A stretch of DNA of 64,000 bases, from positions 1-64,000 of IMG/VR virus record IMGVR_UViG_3300045996_002451; one strand, written 5' to 3'. A program made the translations under genes and the position numbers. This document shows positions 8,605 through 64,000 of this stretch, in pieces (position 1 is the stretch's first letter; each line of letters starts with the position of its first letter). Below the pieces are notes generated by a model. That model worked only from the letters and a program-made list of their open reading frames with translations. It did not search any database and was not told the origin of the DNA. This DNA is from a virus (lineage: Duplodnaviria > Heunggongvirae > Uroviricota > Caudoviricetes).

Positions 8605-8745
8605 AGTGTTTAGAGACGACAAGGGCGCTGCAACCAGCGAGTGCGGATGCAGCGCCAAAACTGAGAACGGACGGTTCGATGTCCCCTTCAGTTTACCCTG
8701 CGGAGTCGGGAGCAGCAGTCCGCTTCCCGGCTGAGGTATGACGCG

Positions 8746-9144
8746 TCATACAGACTCGCAGATCCCAGGCGGGTTGTCAAGAGAGTTTAGCAAGTCAGCC
8801 CTCGGTAAGGTAGCTAGAGCGTCAGGGAACGTTTCCCGGACCAGAAACAGGTTCCAGACGCGGGTGATCTCCAAGACCCGACGAACGCGCACTTCCGTGA
8901 TGACCAGGCGTAGCTGAAGGTAGCGATCGGTCAGTCGTTTGAGCAGGCTGATGAGCACACCCACTCCGACCGAGTCGATCTGGTCGACGGCGCTGAGGTC
9001 CAACACGACATTTCCGGAACGCTGTTCCAGGCAGCCCATCACCTCCTGACGGAGGTGGGGCGCTTCAAACACCGTCAACTGTCCTGAGAGACGCAGCACC
9101 CACGTACCGCTTTCCAGATACTGCGTCTCTACTTGCAACATCAT
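8746..9144 (-). CDS. STAS-domain anti-anti-sigma factor (SpoIIAA/RsbV-like)
   Basis: VVLDLSAVDQIDSVGVGVL with phosphorylatable Ser; VRRVLEIT. Confidence 0.9.
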   Translation of the reverse strand: MMLQVETQYLESGTWVLRLSGQLTVFEAPHLRQEVMGCLEQRSGNVVLDLSAVDQIDSVGVGVLISLLKRLTDRYLQLRLVITEVRVRRVLEITRVWNLFLVRETFPDALATLPRADLLNSLDNPPGICESV

Positions 9145-9153
9145 CCCAGACTC

Positions 9154-9678
9154 CTATCTCTGTGCCGGTTCCAGGTAGTACTTCTTCAGCTCGGTCGAAG
9201 CCGTCTTCTCGAGTTTTCGAAGCTCCGCCAGCGCAGGGATCGCCCAGGTATCAAGCTGCCCCGCCTTTTCCAGCTCCGCCAGCTCGCCCATGTTTACCCA
9301 GCGCTGTTCGGTACACTTCGTGGGTTCTACAATACGCAGCGTACCGATATTCCCAAAGAGCGGCAAGCAGAAGAAGACGTGGTTGTGCCAGTGGTGCCCT
9401 GTGTCCGGGTAGATGATCTCGATCATCGGTAGCCGGAGTAGGGGGTACACGACAAGGTTGGTTTCTTCAAACACTTCCCGGCTTACAGCAGTCTCAATCG
9501 GCTCACCGAGGTCTTGCTTGCCCCCGGGAAACTCCCAGAGACCTACGTCGTACGGACAGGCGGGACCCCGCCGCTGAATCAAGAGAGTACCGTCCAGCGG
9601 ATGCTGGATGAGGGCGCCTACACCGATGCCGATAAAGTCTCGGCCATGCTTGAGCTGCGCCACGTTTTGTGTTTCCAT
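9154..9678 (-). CDS. NUDIX hydrolase
   Basis: Nudix box GGKQDLGEPIETAVSREVFEETNL. Confidence 0.92.
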   Translation of the reverse strand: METQNVAQLKHGRDFIGIGVGALIQHPLDGTLLIQRRGPACPYDVGLWEFPGGKQDLGEPIETAVSREVFEETNLVVYPLLRLPMIEIIYPDTGHHWHNHVFFCLPLFGNIGTLRIVEPTKCTEQRWVNMGELAELEKAGQLDTWAIPALAELRKLEKTASTELKKYYLEPAQR

Positions 9679-10982
9679 TCCGGGCCTCGACTTTCTAGAA
9701 GTACTGGAAGTTGGAGGTGGTTTTCCAGGTTAGGGATCAACCGCTCACTGCCGAGCGTGCCGTAACGAGGCAGGGCCTCTTTCAACTTTTCGGTTTTCTT
9801 TTCCCGGCCCGCAAAGTCATCCGGACGGGTGCTGGGGATGTAGTGGATCGGGAACCCGTTGAAGTAACGGATGCATCCCTTGCGCTGTTCCAGCGCTTCC
9901 CACCGGTCCAGGTGGGTCAAGGCGAGACCGTCCAGCGGTCCGCCTACCTGCTGCTGCACGCGCACCGCGTACTCCCACGCCACAAAGTCCGGCCAGCCTA
10001 CCCGAAAGACTCCTTGAGTACTATCGTCGGCACTGAACGTCTCGGGCAACAGCTTTTTTAGTTCCGCGTCTTCGGTCACTAAAGGACCTGCGCCGTGCCG
10101 GGTCATGTACGCCCGCATGACTCCCAGGCGGTGCACGTTACCCGTGTAACTCCGAAGGAGTGTCTCGGCGTTCTTGGAAGTGGTGTGGGACCAGGTGGTG
10201 TGGGGATGGAAACCCCAGTCCTCGTCAAGCAGGACACCCTGCGCGCCCTCGAACACCACGTTGGTTTGTTCCAGGCGTTCCTGGAGCCAGAGATCGCTGA
10301 CGACTTGCTTGTACAGCACGTCTTTGAACAGGCTGCACCGACTCGTGGCTTTACGCAACCAGTCCGTATCCTTCAGGATGTTCCAGTAGGGACCGGCTTC
10401 AGGTAGGTGCGCGATCTGGTCGAAGGTGCCGTCCTCCAGCAACTCTTCGTACTTGTAAAGTTGCATCAACCAGAGTCGATCGGAAAGGTCTGAGTAAGAA
10501 AACTTAACCGCCTCTCCCACCGTCAAGGTGCATCCTGGTTTGTCTTTCAGGAGATCCTGCTGGGCTTCGCCAACGCCCATGCCGCAGGTACCGTGGGCTG
10601 CTGCGCCCCGGGCCAGCTCACGCAACATGTTGGCGGCTTGATGAAACGGGGTAATGACCGAACACTGGTGATCAATGTAAAGTCGGTCAATGGCATCCGC
10701 ATAGCCGATCTTTGTCAGATGGTTGTACTCGTTGTATAAGTTATAGGGGTTGACCAGCATGTGCCGGGAAAGGTAGGTCTCTACTCCCGGCACAAACGTC
10801 CCCGAACCAAACTGGGAGAAGACATGGTCGCGGTCTCCCTCGACTACTGCGTGGCCTGCTTGCGGTCCTCCGTTATAACGCACGACCAGTCCGGCTTTTT
10901 TGTCGCGGACCAGGAAGTCGGTAACGGTACCTTTGCCGCTATCCCCATAACCCAAGTCGACCACGATCCATGCTTCTCTCAT
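9618..10982 (-). CDS. adenylosuccinate synthetase-like protein (divergent PurA family)
   Basis: GYGDSGKG, RYNGGPQAGH, HGTCGMGVG, FEGAQGVLLD, YMTRHGAGP, LTHLD. Confidence 0.9.
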   Translation of the reverse strand: MREAWIVVDLGYGDSGKGTVTDFLVRDKKAGLVVRYNGGPQAGHAVVEGDRDHVFSQFGSGTFVPGVETYLSRHMLVNPYNLYNEYNHLTKIGYADAIDRLYIDHQCSVITPFHQAANMLRELARGAAAHGTCGMGVGEAQQDLLKDKPGCTLTVGEAVKFSYSDLSDRLWLMQLYKYEELLEDGTFDQIAHLPEAGPYWNILKDTDWLRKATSRCSLFKDVLYKQVVSDLWLQERLEQTNVVFEGAQGVLLDEDWGFHPHTTWSHTTSKNAETLLRSYTGNVHRLGVMRAYMTRHGAGPLVTEDAELKKLLPETFSADDSTQGVFRVGWPDFVAWEYAVRVQQQVGGPLDGLALTHLDRWEALEQRKGCIRYFNGFPIHYIPSTRPDDFAGREKKTEKLKEALPRYGTLGSERLIPNLENHLQLPVLLESRGPEWKHKTWRSSSMAETLSASV

Positions 10983-10994
10983 TGGTTGGTTCCT

Positions 10995-11948
10995 CTAGGC
11001 ACGCCCTCCCACCAGTTCGGTGTCGGGTTCGCTGAAGTCGTAGATGCGTACCGGTTGTACGCTGGACACGGTGTTGGCCAGACTGGCGGCTGCCGGACCG
11101 AGGTCCGCTTTTACCTCTTCCCAAGGCACACCCTCACACATCGAAATGGTGCTGGCGATCAACTCGCAGACCAAGTCCGCGTCATCCAGCAGCAAGAGCC
11201 GCTGGCCAAGCGCTTCCCGCCACGGATCCAGGATGTCCGGTCGGTTGCGGTAAGAGCCCTGCTGCACGTGAATGTGGTAGTACTCGAAGTTCTGCAAGGT
11301 GGCTTGCAGCAACTCGTCGAACGACAGGTCTGCCTGCGGGCTTTCCCCGAAGACCGCGTAGATCTTGCTGCGGGGAAGTTTGTCGTAGAAGCGCTCATCC
11401 CCCATCGTGAAGAGGTAGCCTTTCTTCTTGCGCTTCTCGACCGAGTCGAGCGCGACTTTGTAGCCGCCGAAGTAGAGCGCCAGCTCGTAGCTCTCGGTGC
11501 CTCCACCTCCGCCGCCGCCTTCCAAGATCGCGTTGCGGAGCTGTTCATCGCACCGGTTATCGGCTTCGAACTGTCCGACCTGGAATGGGAACCGGTCCGC
11601 GTAGGCATCGCCGACGGCACCGAAGAGGACGTGGGGGTCCTTGATGTTGCCGCGCCGGGTGAGTAGGCTCATCAGGTTGGGCAGCTTCTGCTGGAACGTC
11701 CGGGGCAACGTCCGCATCGAACCCGTCACGTCGAAGAAGACCGCGACCGGCAAGCTTTCCGGATGGTCCGAGGAGTCACGCGACTCTCGTACGCCCTTGA
11801 TCTTCTTTGGATCGAGCGTCTCATGAATGATTGCTGCGGTTTGTCCGCTCTGTACGGACTTGGAGTAGGCAAAGTCGTCTACTCCCTTAGCCACGCGCTC
11901 GGAGCGTGCCGAGCGATAGGTCGCTTCGTTCCATCTACCGTCACCCAT
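10995..11948 (-). CDS. vWA (MIDAS)-domain protein
   Basis: FDVTGSM MIDAS, QVGQFE, EGGGGGGGTESY, FTMGDE. Confidence 0.85.
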   Translation of the reverse strand: MGDGRWNEATYRSARSERVAKGVDDFAYSKSVQSGQTAAIIHETLDPKKIKGVRESRDSSDHPESLPVAVFFDVTGSMRTLPRTFQQKLPNLMSLLTRRGNIKDPHVLFGAVGDAYADRFPFQVGQFEADNRCDEQLRNAILEGGGGGGGTESYELALYFGGYKVALDSVEKRKKKGYLFTMGDERFYDKLPRSKIYAVFGESPQADLSFDELLQATLQNFEYYHIHVQQGSYRNRPDILDPWREALGQRLLLLDDADLVCELIASTISMCEGVPWEEVKADLGPAAASLANTVSSVQPVRIYDFSEPDTELVGGRA

Positions 11949-20447: not shown

Positions 20448-21377
20448 TTACGTAGCTTCGGTAGTTGCCGTCCCCGAAGGGTTCGATGCAGATAATTGTG
20501 CGATCAGCTCTTTGATCGCCTGGCCCGCTAGTTGGTCGCATCGTTCGTTCTCCACATGACCGCGGTGTCCCCGCACGTGCTGGAAACGGAGGAGTCCGCA
20601 GCTCCTGACCAGGTCGACGACTGGTTGTAGGCGCTTCATACTTTCCGCTTGGAAGTTCTTGTAGGGAGCCTTGCCTTCGAGCGGAGGCCGTCCTAGTAAA
20701 GCATGCAGCGACATAATCGTCCACTCACTATCCGTAATGAGGTCCACAAAGAGCCGGGCGCGTAGCTCGGGGGCAAAGAACTGCAAGGCACGCGAGACGC
20801 ACTCCAACTCGGCCCGGGGCGAGCCGACCTGTTCCAGCCACTCGGCAAAGCTGTACTCGTGGGTTTTACCGGCTGACCGGATCATGTACCCGTAGCCCTG
20901 CACCGAGTGCTTGAGAGAGACTCCGGCGTCCGTCCAGACCTGTACGTACTTCAGCAGCTTGCGCTCTGTTTCCGGCAGGTAAAACTTGTGCTCGTCTTTG
21001 GGGCAGTAGACCACCGTGATCGGCTGCTGTCCGTGTCCGCGCTCCCGAAGTAGCTTGAGCGTCGAAACGCTGAGGCCATCCCAGAACACCAGGAGCGCAT
21101 GTGCCGAGGCGCTGATCTTCTGGATGCTCTCCTCTCGCGCCCGACTGCGGTTTTCGGGATGCTTTTCGTAGTCGGGGTAGTGTTCCCGGGCAGGTTTACC
21201 CAGGACACGTTCACTGTACCAGGACGCGAACGTGCTGATGCCATGCGCGTCGGGCTGCTTACCCGCGGTGACCAGGGTCACATCCGGACCCAATTGCATC
21301 TGATCCAGGACCCGCTTGACGTACTCGTAGTCCTTGAAGTCGCGGGCGCCCCAAACAGCTAACAAACGTTCAGACAT
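20448..21377 (-). CDS. SLOG (DUF2493-like) + RNase HI fusion
   Basis: N-term AVWGARDFKDYE...LVFWDG; C-term WTDAG, RAELE, TDSEW, HVRGHRGHVENERCDQLA. Confidence 0.85.
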   Translation of the reverse strand: MSERLLAVWGARDFKDYEYVKRVLDQMQLGPDVTLVTAGKQPDAHGISTFASWYSERVLGKPAREHYPDYEKHPENRSRAREESIQKISASAHALLVFWDGLSVSTLKLLRERGHGQQPITVVYCPKDEHKFYLPETERKLLKYVQVWTDAGVSLKHSVQGYGYMIRSAGKTHEYSFAEWLEQVGSPRAELECVSRALQFFAPELRARLFVDLITDSEWTIMSLHALLGRPPLEGKAPYKNFQAESMKRLQPVVDLVRSCGLLRFQHVRGHRGHVENERCDQLAGQAIKELIAQLSASNPSGTATTEAT

Positions 21378-22510: not shown

Positions 22511-24451
22511 TTACTCGTCGTTGGCCACGCCGACGTAATCGTAGTAGAACGTGCTGATACTACGCACGGCCTCCCGATCTTCCGGCGATTCTGGAAACTG
22601 GAGCTGGATCATGTTGCGCCCGTGCTGATCCACGGCAACCCCGCGCGCAGCTTTGCTTTGGCGGCTTTCCGTTTCCACGGCCCGCATCACCCCAATGACG
22701 CCGGTAATACAGGAACCGATCTGTACCGGCAGCGTCCCCTTTTCCAACTCAAACCCCATGTCCAGGAGTTCCTGGGAGATCTGCGGAGGAAGGGCTTTGC
22801 CGGTGGCGTCGGTGTACGTCAACGCGTTGCAGAAGAGCGGCAGTTTACCGGTCTCCGGATCTTCGATTTGCCAATGTTCGAAGCCGCGCTTGCGCAAACC
22901 ACAGGAGATGATGTGCACGAGCGTTGCCATGTCCCACTTGGGGTGGATCTTCTTCAGGCCCGCCGCCCATGCCAGCGCGGAAAGGTACGCATCGCGTGCG
23001 CCCTTACCCAACCCGGTCTTTTCCGAGACGACCAGGTCCACTTCGACGCGTTCTCCGTTCGGAAGATAGGTCCACAACTGACGCACGGGCCGGGTCACGG
23101 CTTTGATGCCGCCTGCGGCCAGTTTGATTTTGTCGTAGCCCATCTTTACCGGTACATCGTACCAGTAGCGGTACCGGATGCGGTAGATCGGCGTGGTGTC
23201 ATCCAGCATCTCCGTCAACTCATAAATGGGTTGATGCTTGAAGCCGGGTAACAGCGCCAGTTCTTCGCGCCGTTCGTCCCATTCCTCCTGGGTAAGCTGC
23301 TCGCTCTTGGTGTGGTAGGCCACGAGCTTACGGCGTCCGGAAGGGGTGACTAGGAGGGCGTCTCCCGAAACGATCTCGCCGTCAGCCAGATCTTCTGCAG
23401 CTACGCCCATACTTTCCAGCTCGGCGCGTTCAGTCGGGTCCGGCTCGAAGACGTTTTGTCCCTGGATGTTGATGAACGCAACTACCAGGCCTTTCAGGCG
23501 ACTACTCAAGATCGGCGGACGCGGATGTCCGATACTCTGGAGCAGGGGATGTCCGTCCTCTTGGGTGACGTACGGAAAGCACGTCGGCCAGGCTCGCCCT
23601 TCACGGTGATCGCGCAGGGGGTTGGCATGACACCCAAACGGGTTGCGCGCCAGGACCTCATCCGGAACCGGCTGTTGGGTGACGAAGCTGAGCGGGTTAC
23701 CGGGACGTACCCGCATGACATGCCGTCCCACGTCACTCTTACCGGTGTGCAGGACACACACGAACGGGTCCAGGTACTCGATGAACTTCAGCTTGATCGT
23801 CTCTGCCAGCAAGGTGTCTCCGGGTACCGCAGGGTACCCGAGTTCCACTTCGTGCATCTGGAAACAGAGGAGCGCGTCGTCGGTCAAAGGCATGCCGGAA
23901 AGATCGGGTCCGCCGTTGACTAGCTGGGAGATGGCCCGCTGCAGGTAGGAACGGCACAGCTTGGTGTCCGGTCTCCGAGTGCTGGAGACCAGTCCTTTCG
24001 CTTTGCCTTCCTGACGATCCTTCGGAGAACCGAAGAACGCCTCTACCAGGGCATCGAACAGCCGTCCGTAGAAGTTGTCCCACCGCCAGCCCCATTGTGC
24101 CAGCGGCGTCTGCCCAACTCGACTGCGCGTTGTGGGCAGGGCTTCGAGCGCCAACTGATCGGCTAACGTGGACCGGAGCCGCGGATGGCAGAAGCGGAGG
24201 GCGCCTTTGGGCTGCTCCTGTTGCGGCCCCACAAACTGGATCAGGTGACCGTGGATCCCCGCGTCCCAGGCGTAGGGGATCGCTTTGACGGTAGGCAGAT
24301 GCAGCGTCACATCCACGTAGTCCACAAAGCTGGACCAGAAGGTGTGCACCCGTACCAAGGCACGCTCCGTGTCGGTCCAGGAGAGCAGTTCCAGAATGGG
24401 AGCGCCGTCCGAGCCGCGCATGTTCAACGCTTCTTGGTAAGAACTGATCAC
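22511..24451 (-). CDS. diverged RNA polymerase beta-like subunit
   Basis: GYDKIKLAAGGIKAVTRPVRQLWTYLPNGERVEVDLVVS aligns with beta GDKMAGRHGNKGVIS...MPYxxxGTPVDIVLN; next to beta'-like gene. Confidence 0.7.
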   Translation of the reverse strand: MISSYQEALNMRGSDGAPILELLSWTDTERALVRVHTFWSSFVDYVDVTLHLPTVKAIPYAWDAGIHGHLIQFVGPQQEQPKGALRFCHPRLRSTLADQLALEALPTTRSRVGQTPLAQWGWRWDNFYGRLFDALVEAFFGSPKDRQEGKAKGLVSSTRRPDTKLCRSYLQRAISQLVNGGPDLSGMPLTDDALLCFQMHEVELGYPAVPGDTLLAETIKLKFIEYLDPFVCVLHTGKSDVGRHVMRVRPGNPLSFVTQQPVPDEVLARNPFGCHANPLRDHREGRAWPTCFPYVTQEDGHPLLQSIGHPRPPILSSRLKGLVVAFINIQGQNVFEPDPTERAELESMGVAAEDLADGEIVSGDALLVTPSGRRKLVAYHTKSEQLTQEEWDERREELALLPGFKHQPIYELTEMLDDTTPIYRIRYRYWYDVPVKMGYDKIKLAAGGIKAVTRPVRQLWTYLPNGERVEVDLVVSEKTGLGKGARDAYLSALAWAAGLKKIHPKWDMATLVHIISCGLRKRGFEHWQIEDPETGKLPLFCNALTYTDATGKALPPQISQELLDMGFELEKGTLPVQIGSCITGVIGVMRAVETESRQSKAARGVAVDQHGRNMIQLQFPESPEDREAVRSISTFYYDYVGVANDE

Positions 24452-24705
24452 AGGAAAACTCCTACTTTGGTCAGGTCCGCCACGCCGCGGATCTTCCGAA
24501 ACTGCGAAAGCAGTTGCTCGCAGATGGTGTGCGCGCGGGGAGGCACATCGCCGATCGAGAACTCGCGCGTCCCCCAGACGTAGCTGTAGCTGGACTCGTC
24601 GGTGGGATCTTCCGCCTGAAGCATCAGCGGTAGTCCCGCTAACCCGCCAGGATACTGAAGGTACCAGATGCCGTACTGATCACGGGTTAACAGAAGCTTT
24701 TTCAT
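24448..24705 (-). CDS. hypothetical protein
   Basis: coupled ORF within RNAP cluster. Confidence 0.6.
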   Translation of the reverse strand: MKKLLLTRDQYGIWYLQYPGGLAGLPLMLQAEDPTDESSYSYVWGTREFSIGDVPPRAHTICEQLLSQFRKIRGVADLTKVGVFL

Positions 24706-24708
24706 GGC

Positions 24709-24966
24709 TTACTCCGGAAGAATGTCGAGGCGCGACCAGGTAATGAACTTGCCGCCGTGCTCAGATCTATGTGGTTCGAACTTCTTGTATCCTCCTCCAG
24801 GGAGGACTTCATACCACAGACTATCAATCAGCTCGGCCACGCGCGTCTCGCCGATAAAGATGACGTCTAACTGGATGGAGATCGGTCCGTCGAGACCAGG
24901 CGTGTACGCATGGGGACGACTCCAGTCATGTGTGTCTTGTTGGGGGTTAGAAAAACGAATCTTCAT
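24709..24966 (-). CDS. hypothetical protein
   Basis: MKIRFSN... Confidence 0.55.
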   Translation of the reverse strand: MKIRFSNPQQDTHDWSRPHAYTPGLDGPISIQLDVIFIGETRVAELIDSLWYEVLPGGGYKKFEPHRSEHGGKFITWSRLDILPE

Positions 24967-24967
24967 G

Positions 24968-25324
24968 CTAGCTTTTCCCCCGCGCCGTACTAGACGGCTT
25001 GTTGTAGGCCAGCACTTCCTCGTCAAATTGGCGTGGTGTCAGTTGCAAGGTATGCAGCACGTCGCGAATGGCTTGCCCAATCTCGGAAAGATGTTGCGCC
25101 TCTCGGGCAAAAGCCACCTGCAGCATCGGACACGCCTTTTTGCGCAGTTCGGGAGAGTTCGCGCAGCGCTGCAACGCCTCAGTAAGGCTGGACACAGTTT
25201 CGTTTTTAGGCAACTCCAGCCACGAGATACCGCCGCGCCAGTGCGCCATCGCGCGTACGAGGACGGTGTTTTCAGCAGGGGTAAGTTGCGTACCGACTGG
25301 GACTGTGTGAGGATCAAGAGACAT
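24968..25324 (-). CDS. hypothetical protein
   Basis: MSLDPH..., GGAG RBS. Confidence 0.6.
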   Translation of the reverse strand: MSLDPHTVPVGTQLTPAENTVLVRAMAHWRGGISWLELPKNETVSSLTEALQRCANSPELRKKACPMLQVAFAREAQHLSEIGQAIRDVLHTLQLTPRQFDEEVLAYNKPSSTARGKS

Positions 25325-25380
25325 GTTCGTTCTCCGGTACACGGGTAACGGTGGGGTAGCTCTTACCCCACCGTTAACAC

Positions 25381-27042
25381 CTAGTATTGATACAGCTCGC
25401 TGAAGTCCGCGATATCCGCCAGGTCGTCCGACTGAGAGACGGGCCACTGGGTAACCGCGGCGCCGGTGAGGTCGGCGAGCATGGCGTCATAGACCCGTTC
25501 GGGTGGGATCTCTAACTGCATCATGGCGTCGAGCATCGCCAGGACACTCTTCTCCATGCTCTTGCGCTTCAGCACGAGAGCCCAATAGACCGGACTCTTG
25601 GCACAGAAGCTGCGGAGATTGCCTTCCGCGAGCCGCCAGGCAGTTTTCAGCACTTCCAGACTGTCCGGAGGGATCCCGATCTGTTCTAACCCTTCCCAGT
25701 CCAATTCACCGCCCTGGAGCAGGGTTTCCATGTGCGCGTACGGATCCCAGGTATGGTTGCTGGCAAACTGGGAGTTGCCTGCCCCTTTGCGCGCATCCAT
25801 GCAGTTCTCCATGTACCACTCCAGCAGTCCGTACGAGAGTTCGTAGGCCCGCTTCATGGGTAGCCCGCCTTCCAGGCCCAGTACGCGACTGCACCACCAG
25901 CCAATGGCCATGGTGTAGACTGCGACGTGCTGCCGCGTGTCGGCGTTGTGGATCGCCTCTTTGCGCAGGTGGGTGGAGGAAAGGGCCGGAGGCATGAACT
26001 TATCCTGAACGGTCTTCTCTTTGACTCCGGCAGCAATGAGCTTTTCCGGATGGAGGAGACTGCCGAGGGACATCACGCTGTGGGTCTCGGTCCAGGTGTC
26101 GTACTCTTGGAGTGGCTCGAGCTTCAGCACTTCCAGCTCGCCGCTGAGGACTTCCTTGACGCGGAGGAACGCGAACGCACAATCGCCGTCCTCATCGCCT
26201 AGCCACAGCTTTTCCAGGTTCCAGGGGTTGGCCCAGATGACCTTGCCGTTACCGGGAACTATCCGTAGTGTCATAGCCTGGATACCGGAGGCGTTGGCCA
26301 AAGGAAAGCGGATGCACCAGCACGGCATCCCGTCGAGCAGTTCCCAGACTAGCTGGAGGTAGCGGTGTTTTTCAGTTTCACTGAGGGCACCCAGGCCCTG
26401 AGCAAATAACTGCGCCGCATCCGGGTAGGCTGCAAACAGCTCCGGATGTTCTTTGTAGACCCCTTTCAGGATCTGCTTGGCAAACCCTTCCGTCACAGCG
26501 ATCTGCCGCGGAGGAAGATTTTTGCGCGTCTGCACGTGCGCCATGAAACCGGGACGCTCCCGGACCTTGATCATCCCACCCTTGAGCACGGACGCCAGTA
26601 ACCGCCCCGAAGCCTCGACCATTTTGGCGATCTCGTAGCGGTAGTTGTAGTCCTCGTTCTGGGTGAGGTAATTGGACAGGAGGTTGTTGGCCCGGACAAA
26701 GAGGTCCGGTACCCGAATCTGGATACCGAGGGGACGACCCTTCTCATCCCAGACCCGTTCTTCCATCAGTTCACTGCGACGCAGGGGCGGCAACTTTACC
26801 AGGTGATACGGCTCCGGTAAGAGCGTGGGTATCTGTACTTCCGTTTCAAAGTACGCCCCGGCAAGCACCGTGCGGTGCAGGTCCGTGAGTTGGAGCACGC
26901 GCCGATCCGAGGTGGAGCGGACGCTTTTTGGGTCACGTACGATGCACAGATGCTGCGACCCGCCGACCCATGGGTAAGGTACGGAGGCCGTGATTAAGGA
27001 CGTAGCGGAAGACGAAACAGGAGACGTATCTACGGTAGACAT
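25381..27042 (-). CDS. diverged RNA polymerase beta'-like catalytic subunit
   Basis: IRFPLANASGIQAMTLRIVPGNGKVIWANPWNLEKLWLGDEDGD matches beta' NRAPTLHRLGIQAF...IEGKAIQLHP...NADFDGD. Confidence 0.82.
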   Translation of the reverse strand: MSTVDTSPVSSSATSLITASVPYPWVGGSQHLCIVRDPKSVRSTSDRRVLQLTDLHRTVLAGAYFETEVQIPTLLPEPYHLVKLPPLRRSELMEERVWDEKGRPLGIQIRVPDLFVRANNLLSNYLTQNEDYNYRYEIAKMVEASGRLLASVLKGGMIKVRERPGFMAHVQTRKNLPPRQIAVTEGFAKQILKGVYKEHPELFAAYPDAAQLFAQGLGALSETEKHRYLQLVWELLDGMPCWCIRFPLANASGIQAMTLRIVPGNGKVIWANPWNLEKLWLGDEDGDCAFAFLRVKEVLSGELEVLKLEPLQEYDTWTETHSVMSLGSLLHPEKLIAAGVKEKTVQDKFMPPALSSTHLRKEAIHNADTRQHVAVYTMAIGWWCSRVLGLEGGLPMKRAYELSYGLLEWYMENCMDARKGAGNSQFASNHTWDPYAHMETLLQGGELDWEGLEQIGIPPDSLEVLKTAWRLAEGNLRSFCAKSPVYWALVLKRKSMEKSVLAMLDAMMQLEIPPERVYDAMLADLTGAAVTQWPVSQSDDLADIADFSELYQY

Positions 27043-27149
27043 AGGCCCTCCGGGACCGGGTCAAAGAGGCGTCTATATAAACCACCGTGAGGTGGGAAAC
27101 CGGGTAGCCAGACGGTTAAGCCTGGCTACCCACGTACTACGGGCCTCTC

Positions 27150-27947
27150 TTAGGAGAGGTTGTCTTGCCACGGGTTGTACGGTTCATCGGAACCGGCACC
27201 TGCGGGGGCCAGCTCACGCGGAGGCGGCGCATCCTGGTAGCTGCTGCTGGTCGGAGCGGAGACGCCCGGCTGCACGTTGCGGAAACGCTCACGTCGCTCT
27301 TCCGGAGTCTCGCGGTTCTTGCGGGCCGACTCGTACGGGAACTTTTCGGCGACCATGACCGCCGTCATCACGCCTTCCATGTTCTGGAGGTTCTCCAGAG
27401 TGGCCAACCGATTCTTACGGGTAGCCGGACCGTTGGCCGTGGTGCGCACGAACGAGGTGTACAAGCGGCTGGCGAACTCCAGCTTGTACGTCTTGCCGTC
27501 GAAACCGAGGTCCACGGCCAGCACGAGCGCCTGGGAGTTCTCGCCGACCGTCTGCGGGATCACGAGCGCGTAGCTCCAGAACGTGCTGGAGCCGCTTTCC
27601 GTCGCGGTACCGAAGCGCTCGACGGCCACGAGGTACGCGGTCTGATCGGCGTTTTCGTCCAGCTCGATCTTGTACGCTTCGCGGTTCTGCGGCTTGACTT
27701 CCAGGTAGCCCTTGATGGAATCGACCAGGGCGCCCAGCTTCTCGAACGCGACCGCGGTCAGGTTGGCGATGTGGATGCGCGGAAAGCGGATGACCATCGG
27801 CGCGTTGTTGCCTTCGAACACGGCGCGCAGCTTGTTGGCGGAGATCGGATCCACGTTGTCGATCTCAACCGCCGCGGTGATGACCTGATCCAGGATGTCG
27901 GTGCGAGCGTCGCGCGGAGCCACACCATCTCGAGTAACGATATACAT
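27150..27947 (-). CDS. hypothetical protein, probably highly expressed
   Basis: 265 aa, strongly C/G-ending codons, preceded by both recurrent motifs. Confidence 0.75.
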   Translation of the reverse strand: MYIVTRDGVAPRDARTDILDQVITAAVEIDNVDPISANKLRAVFEGNNAPMVIRFPRIHIANLTAVAFEKLGALVDSIKGYLEVKPQNREAYKIELDENADQTAYLVAVERFGTATESGSSTFWSYALVIPQTVGENSQALVLAVDLGFDGKTYKLEFASRLYTSFVRTTANGPATRKNRLATLENLQNMEGVMTAVMVAEKFPYESARKNRETPEERRERFRNVQPGVSAPTSSSYQDAPPPRELAPAGAGSDEPYNPWQDNLS

Positions 27948-28051
27948 TGGAAGCTCTCTTTCTGAACAGTGACGAGGCTCTCTAGGAGCCGGGTTGTTAC
28001 ACGGGTATCAACAGTGGAAGGAGGGAACCCGTAACCCCAAACCTTCCCCAA

Positions 28052-28066
28052 CCCTACACGCAATCT
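28052..28066 (-). promoter_or_regulatory. candidate phage promoter AGATTGCGTGTAGGG (representative copy)
   Basis: exact copies also at 28682, 42985, 58058; variants at 48959, 56046, 59295, 59965; always upstream of minus-strand genes. Confidence 0.7.
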
Positions 28067-28812: not shown

Positions 28813-30486
28813 TCAGCGGTTAGCGAGGACCGCACTGATCATACTGGAGGCTTCTCCCTTGGTCAACTTGGAGACCGCATCCGGGTTGAAGCCCGAACGC
28901 ACCAGCATCTTGATCTGCCCCTCGGTAGGCGGATCTTTGCGCCAGCGCGCACCACTGTCCGCGATGTAGCCCACGCTGGGCCAGTAAGCGCGTACTTCCC
29001 GGTCCGCTATGCGGAGTACCGGTCCGATCTCCTGGTCGTAAGGACCGCGCCCGTCCACGACCACGCCGCCTACCAGGAACTGCAGCACCCATTGACCCAT
29101 CAGGTCCTGGCGCAGGTGCGCTTCCTGCTGGGGTCCGCGCACGGCGGGATCATCGGTACGCACGCTGCCGCAAGACAGCAAGTAGTGCTCCGCGTTGATC
29201 TTCACCCAGGTCATGGTGCTGTTCTCCTTCACCTCGGCAGCAGGTTCTACCGCGGCGAAGAGATCCACCTTTTCCAGCACGGTTTGCAGCTCGCTGAAGG
29301 TGCTTGGCATCTCTTCCTTCAGTAAGGAGAGCTTGGACTCCACCTGATCCATGTACTTCGCTGCTTGGGAAAGACTCTTGCCTTGCAGGTCGAGCCCCGG
29401 GGGCAGGTCGAGGATCGCCGGAACGCCCGCGAGGGAGTGTTTCCGGCAGTTATCGACCACATCGATCACGATCAGGTCTTCTTTACCGTCACAGATGCGC
29501 GTACCGCGACCCGTCATCTGCATGTACAGCGACCAGCTTTTGGTGGGACGCATCATCAAGACGCAGGAGAGCGGAGGGTGGTCAAAGCCTTCCGTCAGGA
29601 CCTCTACGTTGGTGAGGATCTGCGTCTCACCCTGCTTGAACCGCTCCAGGATGGCGCGGCGTTCCTCTTTCCCCAGGTTGCCGTGGATGCACTCGGCTTT
29701 GAAGTTTTTGGAGCGGAACGTTTCGGCTACCATCTCCGCATGTTCGACACTGGCGCAGAAGACCACCGTCTGCCGGTTACGCGCCACGCTCCACCAGTGG
29801 GAGAGCGCTTTACGCGTGCGGTTCTGGTCCATGACCGCGGCAGCCAGCTCGCCCTGGTTGAAGTCTCCGCCGAGCGTCTTGACCTTATCCAGGTTGACGT
29901 CGGAGCGGACCCGGTAACCGCGGATGTCGCAGAGGTAGCCCTCTTCGATGGCCTGGCGGATCGGGTAGTTGTACACCTGACGCTGGAAAACGGAGGCCAG
30001 GTTCAGTTTATCGAGACGCTTCGGCGTCGCCGTGCAGCCCACCAGTTTGACCTCACCTGGCTGCATGGCACCATAGCGCTTGAAGATCTTCACGTAGCTT
30101 TCCGCCACCGCGTGATGGGCTTCATCCGTGATGATCAGGTTCGGACTGAACCAACCCAGTCGCTTACCGCGGGAAAGGGTCTGTACGGAGGCGATCACCA
30201 CCGAGCAGTCTTTCTCGGCATACCGATCGCCTTGTTCGATCCCGACTACGGTGCCGGGAGCCGACCGTTCGAACATCCCAGCAGCTTGATCGAGCAGCTC
30301 TTCCCGGTGCGCCAGGACCAAGGTTTTGCCTGGTCGCTCTGCCTGGAGCGCGTTGTGGATCGCTCCGAACGTGACGGTCTTGCCGGTCCCAGTAGGTAGC
30401 GCGTAGAGCACGCTGTGGAGGTCGTCGGCGGTGAACGCTTTGACGACCTCGTCACGCGCTGCTAGTTGATAAGGTCTCAGTTCCAT
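28813..30486 (-). CDS. SF2 DEAD/DEAH helicase (ResIII/Irc3-like)
   Basis: LRPYQ, PTGTGKT, DEAHH, TATP, LTEGFD, QMTGRGTR. Confidence 0.95.
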   Translation of the reverse strand: MELRPYQLAARDEVVKAFTADDLHSVLYALPTGTGKTVTFGAIHNALQAERPGKTLVLAHREELLDQAAGMFERSAPGTVVGIEQGDRYAEKDCSVVIASVQTLSRGKRLGWFSPNLIITDEAHHAVAESYVKIFKRYGAMQPGEVKLVGCTATPKRLDKLNLASVFQRQVYNYPIRQAIEEGYLCDIRGYRVRSDVNLDKVKTLGGDFNQGELAAAVMDQNRTRKALSHWWSVARNRQTVVFCASVEHAEMVAETFRSKNFKAECIHGNLGKEERRAILERFKQGETQILTNVEVLTEGFDHPPLSCVLMMRPTKSWSLYMQMTGRGTRICDGKEDLIVIDVVDNCRKHSLAGVPAILDLPPGLDLQGKSLSQAAKYMDQVESKLSLLKEEMPSTFSELQTVLEKVDLFAAVEPAAEVKENSTMTWVKINAEHYLLSCGSVRTDDPAVRGPQQEAHLRQDLMGQWVLQFLVGGVVVDGRGPYDQEIGPVLRIADREVRAYWPSVGYIADSGARWRKDPPTEGQIKMLVRSGFNPDAVSKLTKGEASSMISAVLANR

Positions 30487-63113: not shown

Positions 63114-63998
63114 TTAGTCCAGCGCTTTGAGCTGCGTCATCACCGCTGCGAGTCCCATTCCGATCTCTTCCAGTTCGGCAGAGACCTCGGAGAACTCACG
63201 GCTGCTGACGTCCGGCCAGATCCCTGCGAACAGGGCTGCGTGCAGCTCTACCTTGACCTGAGCGTCGACGTTGCTCGTGATCTCCACCGTCTGGCTCGGA
63301 CGGTAGCACGGCATCGGAACCACCACTGCTCGTCCCAGTTCGTGGCGATCCACGTCCGGGTTGAGGCAGCGTCCGATGTTGCGCGTATCGCCCGGGGTGT
63401 AGATCCCCTCTTCGTAGAGGTTGGCCCAGGTTACGTCGCGTACGCAGTCCTGATCCAAGCCCTTGGCGACGAGCTTGGCGCGGATGTGCGTGACGTACTG
63501 TTCAGCGGTAGCCGTGGTGTCCTTGATGGACTTGATGCCCGCTTCAGCAGCCATCCCACTACCTACCGCACCCAGGGCTTCCTTTCCAGCCTTGACCGCC
63601 GTATCCTTAGGGAACACGACGTCGACCGGTTGCTGGTTGCCCTTCTCATCCGTGTACCAGAACTGGATCGGGATGATGTTCAGCGTCCCTTTGAAGGGGC
63701 TGAGGAACTTCACCTTACCAGCGTCCAGTCGCGGCCAGGTGACCGTGACTCGGTACTTGGGCACCATCAGACCCGGATGCTTCTCGATTGGGCGCTCTTC
63801 GATGACGAACACCCCCGGGAAGTCCACCGGTACTCCGTGGTGGATCAAGGTCTCGCGGTAGCTTTCCACACGCTCCATCGTGGCCAGGTCCTCATGGGTT
63901 TGGATGAGGGCTAGCTTCAGCAGCGCGCTCGGGCAAGCCGCGATCGTATCCAGACACGCGCCATTGTAGATGGTCACGTTCTCGATGTTGGCCACCAT
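63114..63998 (-). CDS. second RNA polymerase beta-like protein (likely 5'-truncated by window edge)
   Basis: PKYRVTVTW..GKVKFLSPFKGTLNIIPIQFWYTDEKGNQQPVDVVFP aligns with the 22511 ORF and beta GDK...KG...PVDIV. Confidence 0.6.
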   Translation of the reverse strand: MVANIENVTIYNGACLDTIAACPSALLKLALIQTHEDLATMERVESYRETLIHHGVPVDFPGVFVIEERPIEKHPGLMVPKYRVTVTWPRLDAGKVKFLSPFKGTLNIIPIQFWYTDEKGNQQPVDVVFPKDTAVKAGKEALGAVGSGMAAEAGIKSIKDTTATAEQYVTHIRAKLVAKGLDQDCVRDVTWANLYEEGIYTPGDTRNIGRCLNPDVDRHELGRAVVVPMPCYRPSQTVEITSNVDAQVKVELHAALFAGIWPDVSSREFSEVSAELEEIGMGLAAVMTQLKALD

Positions 63999-64000
63999 GG

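Follow-up and report, generated by a model that had tools for sequence, protein, structure and literature searches.

Two-barrel RNA polymerases (RNAPs) are the universal enzymes of transcription, and their minimal phage relatives are the main evidence on how the core of these enzymes evolved. Eight residues are invariant across two-barrel RNAPs, namely R446, P448 and the aspartate triad of Rpb1, and D837, K979 and K987 of Rpb2 (Ruprich-Robert and Thuriaux, PMC2919709). In phiKZ-like phages a superfamily 2 (SF2) helicase is linked to the RNAP genes (PMC7824862), and P23-45 has two paralogous enzymes that are used in sequence (PMC10770324, PMC5467207). Fused beta::beta' proteins have precedents in Helicobacter, pGKL2 Orf6 and NCgl1702 (PMC2919709), and the lysine barrel comes first in those fused or single-chain enzymes whose order is given (PMC2919709, PMC10770324). 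Archaeal PolD has a two-barrel core that is able to replicate DNA, and its DP2 subunit carries a P-H-T selectivity motif, with the histidine as steric gate, in place of the R-x-P of RNAPs (PMC7708050). Here we describe a beta'-like and a beta-like gene in a window of 64,000 nucleotides, the first 64 kb of the 211,171-bp IMG/VR virus record IMGVR_UViG_3300045996_002451 (completeness rating 98%). The record encodes a large terminase, portal, tail sheath and baseplate wedge, which identify it as a tailed jumbo myovirus. With a probability of about 85%, the gene pair is read as the catalytic modules of a minimal, highly diverged two-barrel DNA-dependent RNAP of cellular (beta/beta') type, a reading supported in this analysis by fold, motif conservation, synteny and paralogy. 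The features are listed in Table 1.

Table 1. Features of the split polymerase locus and of its fused paralog; positions are those of the window unless marked as genome positions
Feature	Position	Strand	Remarks
Beta-like subunit gene (P0001)	22511-24451	-	GTG start, 646 aa
Codons of K441...K450, two invariant lysines of the beta-type barrel	23102-23131	-	Alignment A3
Intervening open reading frame	24448-24705	-	85 aa
Intervening open reading frame	24709-24966	-	85 aa
Intervening open reading frame	24968-25324	-	118 aa from internal ATG
Beta'-like subunit gene (P0002)	25381-27042	-	ATG start, 553 aa
Codons of D283-E-D-G-D287, predicted Mg2+-binding aspartate triad	26182-26196	-	Alignment A1
Intergenic spacer, 265-aa gene to beta'-like gene	27043-27149	-	Two GC-rich hairpins
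Conserved 265-aa gene (P0079), directly upstream of the beta'-like gene	27150-27947	-	Blastp, alignment A5
Copy of the strand-specific motif TTGCGTGTAGGG(G/T)TG	28049-28063	-	About 100 nt upstream of the 265-aa gene
SF2 (ResIII/DEAD/SWI2-SNF2) helicase gene, upstream of the operon	28813-30486	-	Pfam
Fused beta'::beta paralog	Genome 63114-66704	-	1196 aa; 3' end in the window at 63114-64000

Catalytic residues of the two proteins

The beta'-like protein contained R245-F-P247, G253-I-Q-A256, G265-K-V-I268, P272 and G282-D-E-D-G-D287, and the beta-like protein contained D440-K441-I-K443...G447-G448-I-K450-A-V followed by L-P-N-G-E-R-V-E-V-D-L-V-V. A first-pass annotation of the sequence had proposed a beta' catalytic block in the 553-aa open reading frame (ORF) and a beta block with two lysines in the 646-aa ORF, and all of the motifs it quoted were found in them. 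Seven metagenomic homologs of the beta'-like protein were recovered at 36-57% identity. In their alignment (A1), R245, P247, A249, N250, G253, G282, D283, D285, G286 and D287 were invariant, so that the DEDGD, whose conservation that annotation had left to be checked in homologs, held as an invariant DxDGD in 8 close homologs. Invariant positions were also found in the helical C-terminus, in A367-D-T369 (A367 and T369) and M415-D-A-R-K419. Three homologs of the beta-like protein were found at first, and the set reached nine sequences after the neighbours of beta'-like genes had been added; K441, G448, K450, D364, N333, G237, K238, R280, R283, E284 and R590 were invariant in all nine.

Each of the eight residues invariant across two-barrel RNAPs was found to have an invariant counterpart here, R245, P247, D283, D285 and D287 in the beta'-like protein and D364, K441 and K450 in the beta-like protein. 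The mapping of the beta residues was inferred from motif context (sGDaLLVTPsG compared to EDSILVS, and DKxK...GGxKAV compared to DKMAGRHGNKGV) and from the structural range. The two lysines are 9 residues apart in the split beta-like protein and 8 apart in the family of the fused paralog (K997 and K1005), as in cellular enzymes, and the catalytic positions were invariant in that family too.

The public protein collection holds the beta'-like gene only as a 505-aa product (P0003) that starts at residue 49. The N-terminal block YPxVGxSQH is conserved among homologs and favours the 553-aa reading, and P0003 is therefore judged to be truncated.

Predicted folds

The AlphaFold2 model of the beta'-like protein had a predicted local distance difference test score (pLDDT) of 74.5. 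Against the PDB, Foldseek returned 394 matches at E<=1e-3, and all of the matches listed were RNAP beta' chains. By VIA-align (Z about 11), residues 159-304 were superposed on E. coli beta' 345-478, the barrel with NADFDGD, at 2.8 Å over 131 residues with 18% identity, and a looser whole-chain superposition placed residues 14-529 on E. coli beta' 33-1351 at a root-mean-square deviation (rmsd) of 6-7 Å. In a search independent of Foldseek, RNAP largest subunits took the top 11 places, in the order bacterial (Z 10.7), plastid (10.3), Pol I, AR9 non-virion (9.4), Pol II, archaeal, phiKZ non-virion (8.8), African swine fever virus, Pol IV, vaccinia and a second Pol I (8.0). Generic double-psi beta-barrels came next (Z 5-7.6), on residues 163-298. 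P23-45 gp96 scored Z 7.0, P74 gp62 Z 5.9 and QDE-1 Z 5.3, below the RNAP largest subunits. The clamp domain of archaeal RNAP matched residues 14-151 (Z 6.2). From these models, the beta'-like protein is predicted to consist of a clamp-like N-terminus (residues 14-151, approximately), a double-psi beta-barrel (approximately 163-298), as the first-pass annotation had expected of a structure prediction, and a helical C-terminus. The viral structure library yielded assorted viral RNAP subunits for the same model; uncharacterised proteins of Acinetobacter phage ME3 and Microcystis phage MaMV-DC were also matched.

For the beta-like model, the best 50 Foldseek matches listed were all RNAP second-largest subunits. 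Residues 298-593 matched yeast Rpb2 797-1097, which includes K979 and K987, with Z 9.4-10 and 3.3 Å over approximately 145 residues. The Foldseek-independent search placed beta/Rpb2-type subunits, AR9 and phiKZ chains among them, in the top nine positions among 48,161 chains (Z 9.7-6.9), and the first unrelated fold appeared at Z 6.4. The C-terminal 300 residues or so are thereby predicted to form a second barrel that holds D364, K441 and K450. Taken together, the two proteins are predicted to have two features of the two-barrel superfamily, a beta'-type double-psi barrel with R-x-P and DxDxD and a second barrel with two lysines and an aspartate.

A fused paralog in the same genome

When all ORFs of the genome were searched with both profiles, a fused beta'::beta paralog was found, with E 1e-8 for A1 and E 3e-17 for A2. 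DEDGD occupies residues 226-230 of this protein and its C-terminal half is beta-like, and the genome thus contains two paralogous sets, the split one at 22.5-27.9 kb and the fused one at 63.1-66.7 kb. Nine database proteins of 980-1,235 aa share its architecture, with DxDxD at residues 200-280 and the beta module at residues 560-1200, approximately. R187, P189, D226, D228, G229, D230, D383, K386, D919, K997, K1005 and R1135 were invariant in this family. By hhalign, the split beta' family corresponded to the N-terminal half of the fused family (E 9e-35) and the split beta family to its C-terminal half (510 columns, E 7e-53). The lysine barrel is second in the fused paralog and its nine relatives, the reverse of the order given in the cited papers for fused and single-chain enzymes.

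The fused paralog corresponds to the split pair over its whole length, and the alignments therefore indicate that one beta' and one beta module, together about 1,100-1,200 aa, form the complete unit, which counts against missing pieces of the phiKZ style. According to such an explanation, the pair would be two of the four to five polypeptides of a phiKZ/AR9-type enzyme whose beta-N and beta'-C pieces lie elsewhere and are too diverged to be recognised. It would fit a jumbo myovirus with two RNAP sets, the presence of AR9 and phiKZ non-virion RNAP chains among the closest phage structures, a conserved third gene (described below) and a beta-like N-terminus of some 300 residues that has no assignment. 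In contrast, the beta'-like model spans the whole of beta' (14-529 compared to 33-1351), the fused paralog accommodates one beta' and one beta module in 1,000-1,235 aa, profile searches of all genome ORFs uncovered no additional piece of either subunit, and deposited phages gave no tblastn match. With both split proteins covered by the fused paralog and no further pieces found by profile search of the genome ORFs, the multi-piece enzyme was rejected; it is improbable, and the best placed of the alternatives.

The same combination of a fused gene and a split pair, on one strand with the fused gene upstream, was present on the 26-kb contig JBKBRF010000069.1, which was binned with an Armatimonadota metagenome-assembled genome. 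This was the only other contig that could be searched for the combination. It was also the only contig with a relative among 185,579 species genomes.

Gene order and the 265-aa partner

The order beta'-like then beta-like was found in 9/9 relatives examined, and the second gene (581-664 aa) was beta-like by profile search wherever the DNA of the locus was present. Nothing lies between the two genes in seven relatives, an unrelated 68-aa ORF does in one (L010), and a 586-aa AAA protein does in another. The last of these is an insertion at L011:7670-9430 with a precomputed AAA (PF00004) match. In the window itself three small ORFs intervene, which the first-pass annotation had suggested might be accessory subunits. 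No blastp counterpart of any of the three was found in the relatives, the 68-aa ORF of L010 included, and their codon-position GC was gene-like, yet weaker than in the neighbouring genes. Since they are absent from relatives, a role as accessory subunits is unlikely and was rejected; they look like lineage-specific insertions. The two polymerase ORFs are intact, with gene-like codon-position GC.

A homolog of the 265-aa gene was found immediately upstream of the beta'-like gene in 8/8 loci for which DNA was available (blastp 1e-55 to 1e-3). The alignment of these proteins (A5) showed a conserved globular core and a disordered tail, and [DN]-P-[FW] is conserved as a motif at the C-terminus. The protein had no match in Pfam, PHROGs, NCBIfam or the PDB, and no fold was detectable. 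It is the best candidate for a third component, either a subunit or a specificity or assembly factor. In the spacer between the 265-aa and beta'-like genes one terminator-like hairpin was listed, and the hairpin count of the region was not above shuffled expectation. A 538,537-bp contig (L016) also carries the three-gene module, and the lineage therefore reaches megaphage-sized genomes.

A helicase similar to the SF2 helicase of the window is linked to the polymerase module in L010 and L014. Type I-E-like Cas genes (Cse2, Cas5 and Cas7-type) lie directly upstream of helicase and RNAP module in L014 (L014:1-3638). In another relative the beta-like gene is directly followed by one (L012:6821-7405) whose 194-aa product combines a zinc finger with the C-terminal domain of RNAP alpha (PF03118, E 1.5e-11). 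Among the genes scanned near the operon in the window, none matched PF03118 or was otherwise recognised as alpha or omega, the genome as a whole not having been searched with alpha or omega models.

Rarity of the lineage in sequence databases

A profile of the beta'-like family produced only 70 matches among 1.84 billion representative proteins. DxDxD was found at the aligned place in 46 of the 49 distant matches, the other three being short proteins of 118-272 aa, and none of the ten distant matches tested belonged to a Pfam or PHROG family. One distant relative, the 1185-aa metagenomic protein P0053, has the beta'-like module at residues 707-1053 and a 700-aa N-terminal region that did not match the beta-like profile; it may represent another domain arrangement of the superfamily.

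Relatives were equally rare by other routes. Searched by tblastn with five family members, the 50,697 records of deposited phages gave no match, the other IMG/VR contigs scanned with both alignments contained no relatives, and a word-indexed second search with the beta-like alignment made no additions. No enzyme with DEDGD, DADGD or DSDGD was found in Supplementary Data 4 of PMC10770324, which covers viruses with at least two RNAPs. Neither of the Pfam models RNA_pol_Rpb1_2 and RNA_pol_Rpb2_6 matched anywhere in the genome at a cutoff as loose as E<=1, and 14/14 control genomes did match the RNAP models. BLASTP of the lysine-motif region against E. coli beta gave no alignment. Look-ups in the ESM Atlas were uninformative, as its own models had pLDDT of 0.32-0.36. 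The first-pass annotation had anticipated that such half-size proteins would be annotated as hypothetical, and the homologs indeed carry the label 'hypothetical' in the sources that name them. Its proposal of a distinct and diverged phage RNAP lineage is borne out by the double-psi beta-barrel predicted in the beta'-like protein and by the invariant DxDGD.

Weighing of the evidence

Several observations weigh against reading the pair as a diverged RNAP. Pfam, PHROGs and NCBIfam gave no match for either protein, the 265-aa protein or the fused paralog, and phmmer and profile searches against PDB sequences were empty. Against single E. coli sequences, hhalign found the right region of beta' (418-467, with D283/D285/D287 on D460/D462/D464) in an alignment that at E 0.086 is not significant, and it found nothing for beta. 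The model of the beta-like protein is poor (pLDDT 44.6, built from 4 sequences), and its N-terminal 300 residues or so have no interpretable model. N458 of the cellular NADFDGD is not kept. The assignment of bridge helix and trigger loop consists of a resemblance of ADT and MDARK seen by eye and of loose superpositions (rmsd 6-7 Å). Moreover, an assembled metagenomic record is the sole source for the phage.

After the multi-piece enzyme, the next explanation is that one or both enzymes are not transcriptases, being instead a PolD-like DNA polymerase or primase or a QDE-1-like RNA-templated polymerase. Pfam models of DNA polymerase families A, B and C (DNA_pol_A, DNA_pol_B and DNA_pol3_alpha) had no match in the 98%-complete 211-kb genome, which does encode ribonucleotide reductase, ThyX, CTP synthase, a PurZ-like enzyme, helicases and RNase H, and the replicating two-barrel core of PolD (PMC7708050) gives this idea a precedent. 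In contrast, both paralogs keep the RNAP-type R-x-P (IRFPLAN in the split and MRYPVGG in the fused enzyme) and not the P-H-T of PolD (PMC7708050), which is absent. The best structural matches were likewise transcriptases, with QDE-1 at only Z 5.3 and PolD not among the best 50 listed. Such an identity for either enzyme is accordingly held to be very unlikely. Still less credit is given to a division of labour in which one paralog serves as the replicative DNA polymerase or as a primase, so that a bacterial virus would use the core in the manner of PolD, and the other serves as the transcriptase. Finally, chance motifs in unrelated or decaying phage ORFs would agree with the missing annotation in sequence databases and are scarcely conceivable, given catalytic residues that stay invariant down to 18-26% identity, conserved synteny, intact ORFs with gene-like codon-position GC and fold matches specific to RNAP subunits.

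A diverged two-barrel RNAP is thus the preferred reading, and from it we infer DNA-templated RNA synthesis by a heterodimer, any role of the 265-aa protein and a cascade of two enzymes. In this enzyme the beta'-like protein would supply the double-psi beta-barrel, with R-x-P as the sugar/phosphate contact and DxDGD as the Mg2+ triad, as well as the clamp-like N-terminus and the helical C-terminus, and the beta-like protein would supply the second barrel with its two lysines and aspartate. The active site would form where the two barrels meet, and the 265-aa protein probably belongs with the pair. The split-enzyme operon would lie behind a phage-specific promoter-like motif. The split enzyme is probably one of two phage transcriptases acting in sequence, and most likely the split and fused polymerases run a temporal cascade, as in phiKZ-like phages and P23-45.

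Promoter-like motif and other repeats

A candidate for a phage promoter of the split-enzyme operon is the copy of TTGCGTGTAGGG(G/T)TG ahead of the 265-aa gene. Within the window, the motif TTGCGTGTAGGGGTG had 9 matches (<=3 mismatches) compared to 1.7 expected, and 0/100 shuffles reached 9. All of the genome's 7 best copies lie at 28-60 kb on the minus strand, most of them at gene gaps in the ORF set of this analysis. A related GTAGGGGGTG was found upstream of the homologous 265-aa-type gene in L010. All copies of TTGCGTGTAGGGGTG lie transcriptionally downstream of the fused gene, a layout compatible with, though no proof of, a cascade in which expression of one enzyme depends on the other. 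Scans for sigma-70 promoters and terminators around both polymerase loci were not above shuffled controls.

Two further repeats were observed. The perfect 16-bp palindrome GTATGACGCGTCATAC is present at 8737-8752 of the window, with a variant at about 21655, and at about 12 more genome sites (70220, 80963, 110785, 126900, 179733 and 186153, for example). These sites are intergenic, often 20-60 nt upstream of plus-strand gene starts, and a ParB gene without ParA is found at genome 69141-70151. The palindrome could be a parS-like site or a late regulatory or promoter element. A second inverted-repeat motif, GTTACCCGTGTAAC, is often near GTATGACGCGTCATAC.

Other genes of the window and genome

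The minus-strand block of the window encodes functions of nucleotide metabolism and RNA biology, including ribonucleotide reductase, a PurZ-like enzyme, NAMPT, a CCA-adding enzyme and a Ro60-like protein. The gene at 9618-10982 (-) matched phrog_1211, '2-aminooxy adenylosuccinate synthetase', strongly (E 9e-72), a family we take to be PurZ-like, and it adjoins a conserved phrog_2971 gene at 10995-11948 (-). Adenine of the phage may be replaced by 2-aminoadenine, which would give a reason for polymerases of its own. Downstream of the operon, at 20448-21377 (-), is the gene for a 309-aa protein with a C-terminal RNase H domain, and L010 has an RNase H gene at a similar position. Several large ORFs of the genome (777, 557, 495 and 415 aa) have no family.

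Comparison with known polymerases

As modelled, the pair is a distinct minimal beta/beta'-type lineage of uncultivated large phages, outside the phiKZ/AR9 and YonO/QDE-1 families as these are defined. New relative to the first-pass annotation are the conserved 265-aa partner gene, the non-conserved intervening ORFs and the fused paralog of reversed order. The lineage packs a beta'/beta-type core into about 1,200 residues, with split and fused forms in one genome. It joins the transcription enzymes known to be encoded by phages and offers a compact, tractable model of the cellular-type active site, a probable further case of a two-polymerase transcription programme and a conserved partner protein to characterise.

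Bacterial beta' and beta (rpoC and rpoB) were among the best structural matches (Z 10.7-11.2 and Z 8.6, respectively). As in these subunits, the barrel with R-x-P and DxDGD lies on one chain, which has a predicted clamp-like N-terminus, and the two lysines and an aspartate lie on the other. In contrast, the phage proteins do not reach half the size of the bacterial ones, show no significant similarity to them in sequence and miss the curated Pfam RNAP models. The genes are also in the order beta' then beta, the asparagine of NADFDGD is lost, and alpha and omega genes were not recognised among the phage genes examined.

The enzymes of phiKZ and AR9 are likewise divergent beta/beta'-type polymerases of jumbo myoviruses with two paralogous sets per genome, and an SF2 helicase is linked to the RNAP genes both here and there (PMC7824862). 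Structural scores to AR9 and phiKZ were Z 9.4 and 8.8 for beta' and Z 7.5 and 6.9 for beta. In those phages an N-terminal and a C-terminal polypeptide make up each of beta and beta', with a fifth subunit in addition, whereas here neither that splitting nor a fifth subunit was found; each module is one short polypeptide, and the second set is one fused chain.

With the single-chain RNAPs (SPbeta YonO, crAss-like gp66, P23-45 gp64/gp96 and QDE-1), the lineage shares a minimal two-barrel plan in which the catalytic residues alone are conserved, and a tendency to escape ordinary annotation. Structural scores for this group (P23-45 gp96, P74 gp62 and QDE-1) were below those of the cellular-type subunits. 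Membership in the YonO/QDE-1/crAss clade was rejected, because the genes are separate and the lysine barrel is not N-terminal to the DxDxD barrel; unlike the single-chain enzymes, the fused paralog has the opposite order. The same reversal sets it apart from Helicobacter, pGKL2 Orf6 and NCgl1702, all of which have beta first and beta' second, whereas here beta' comes first.

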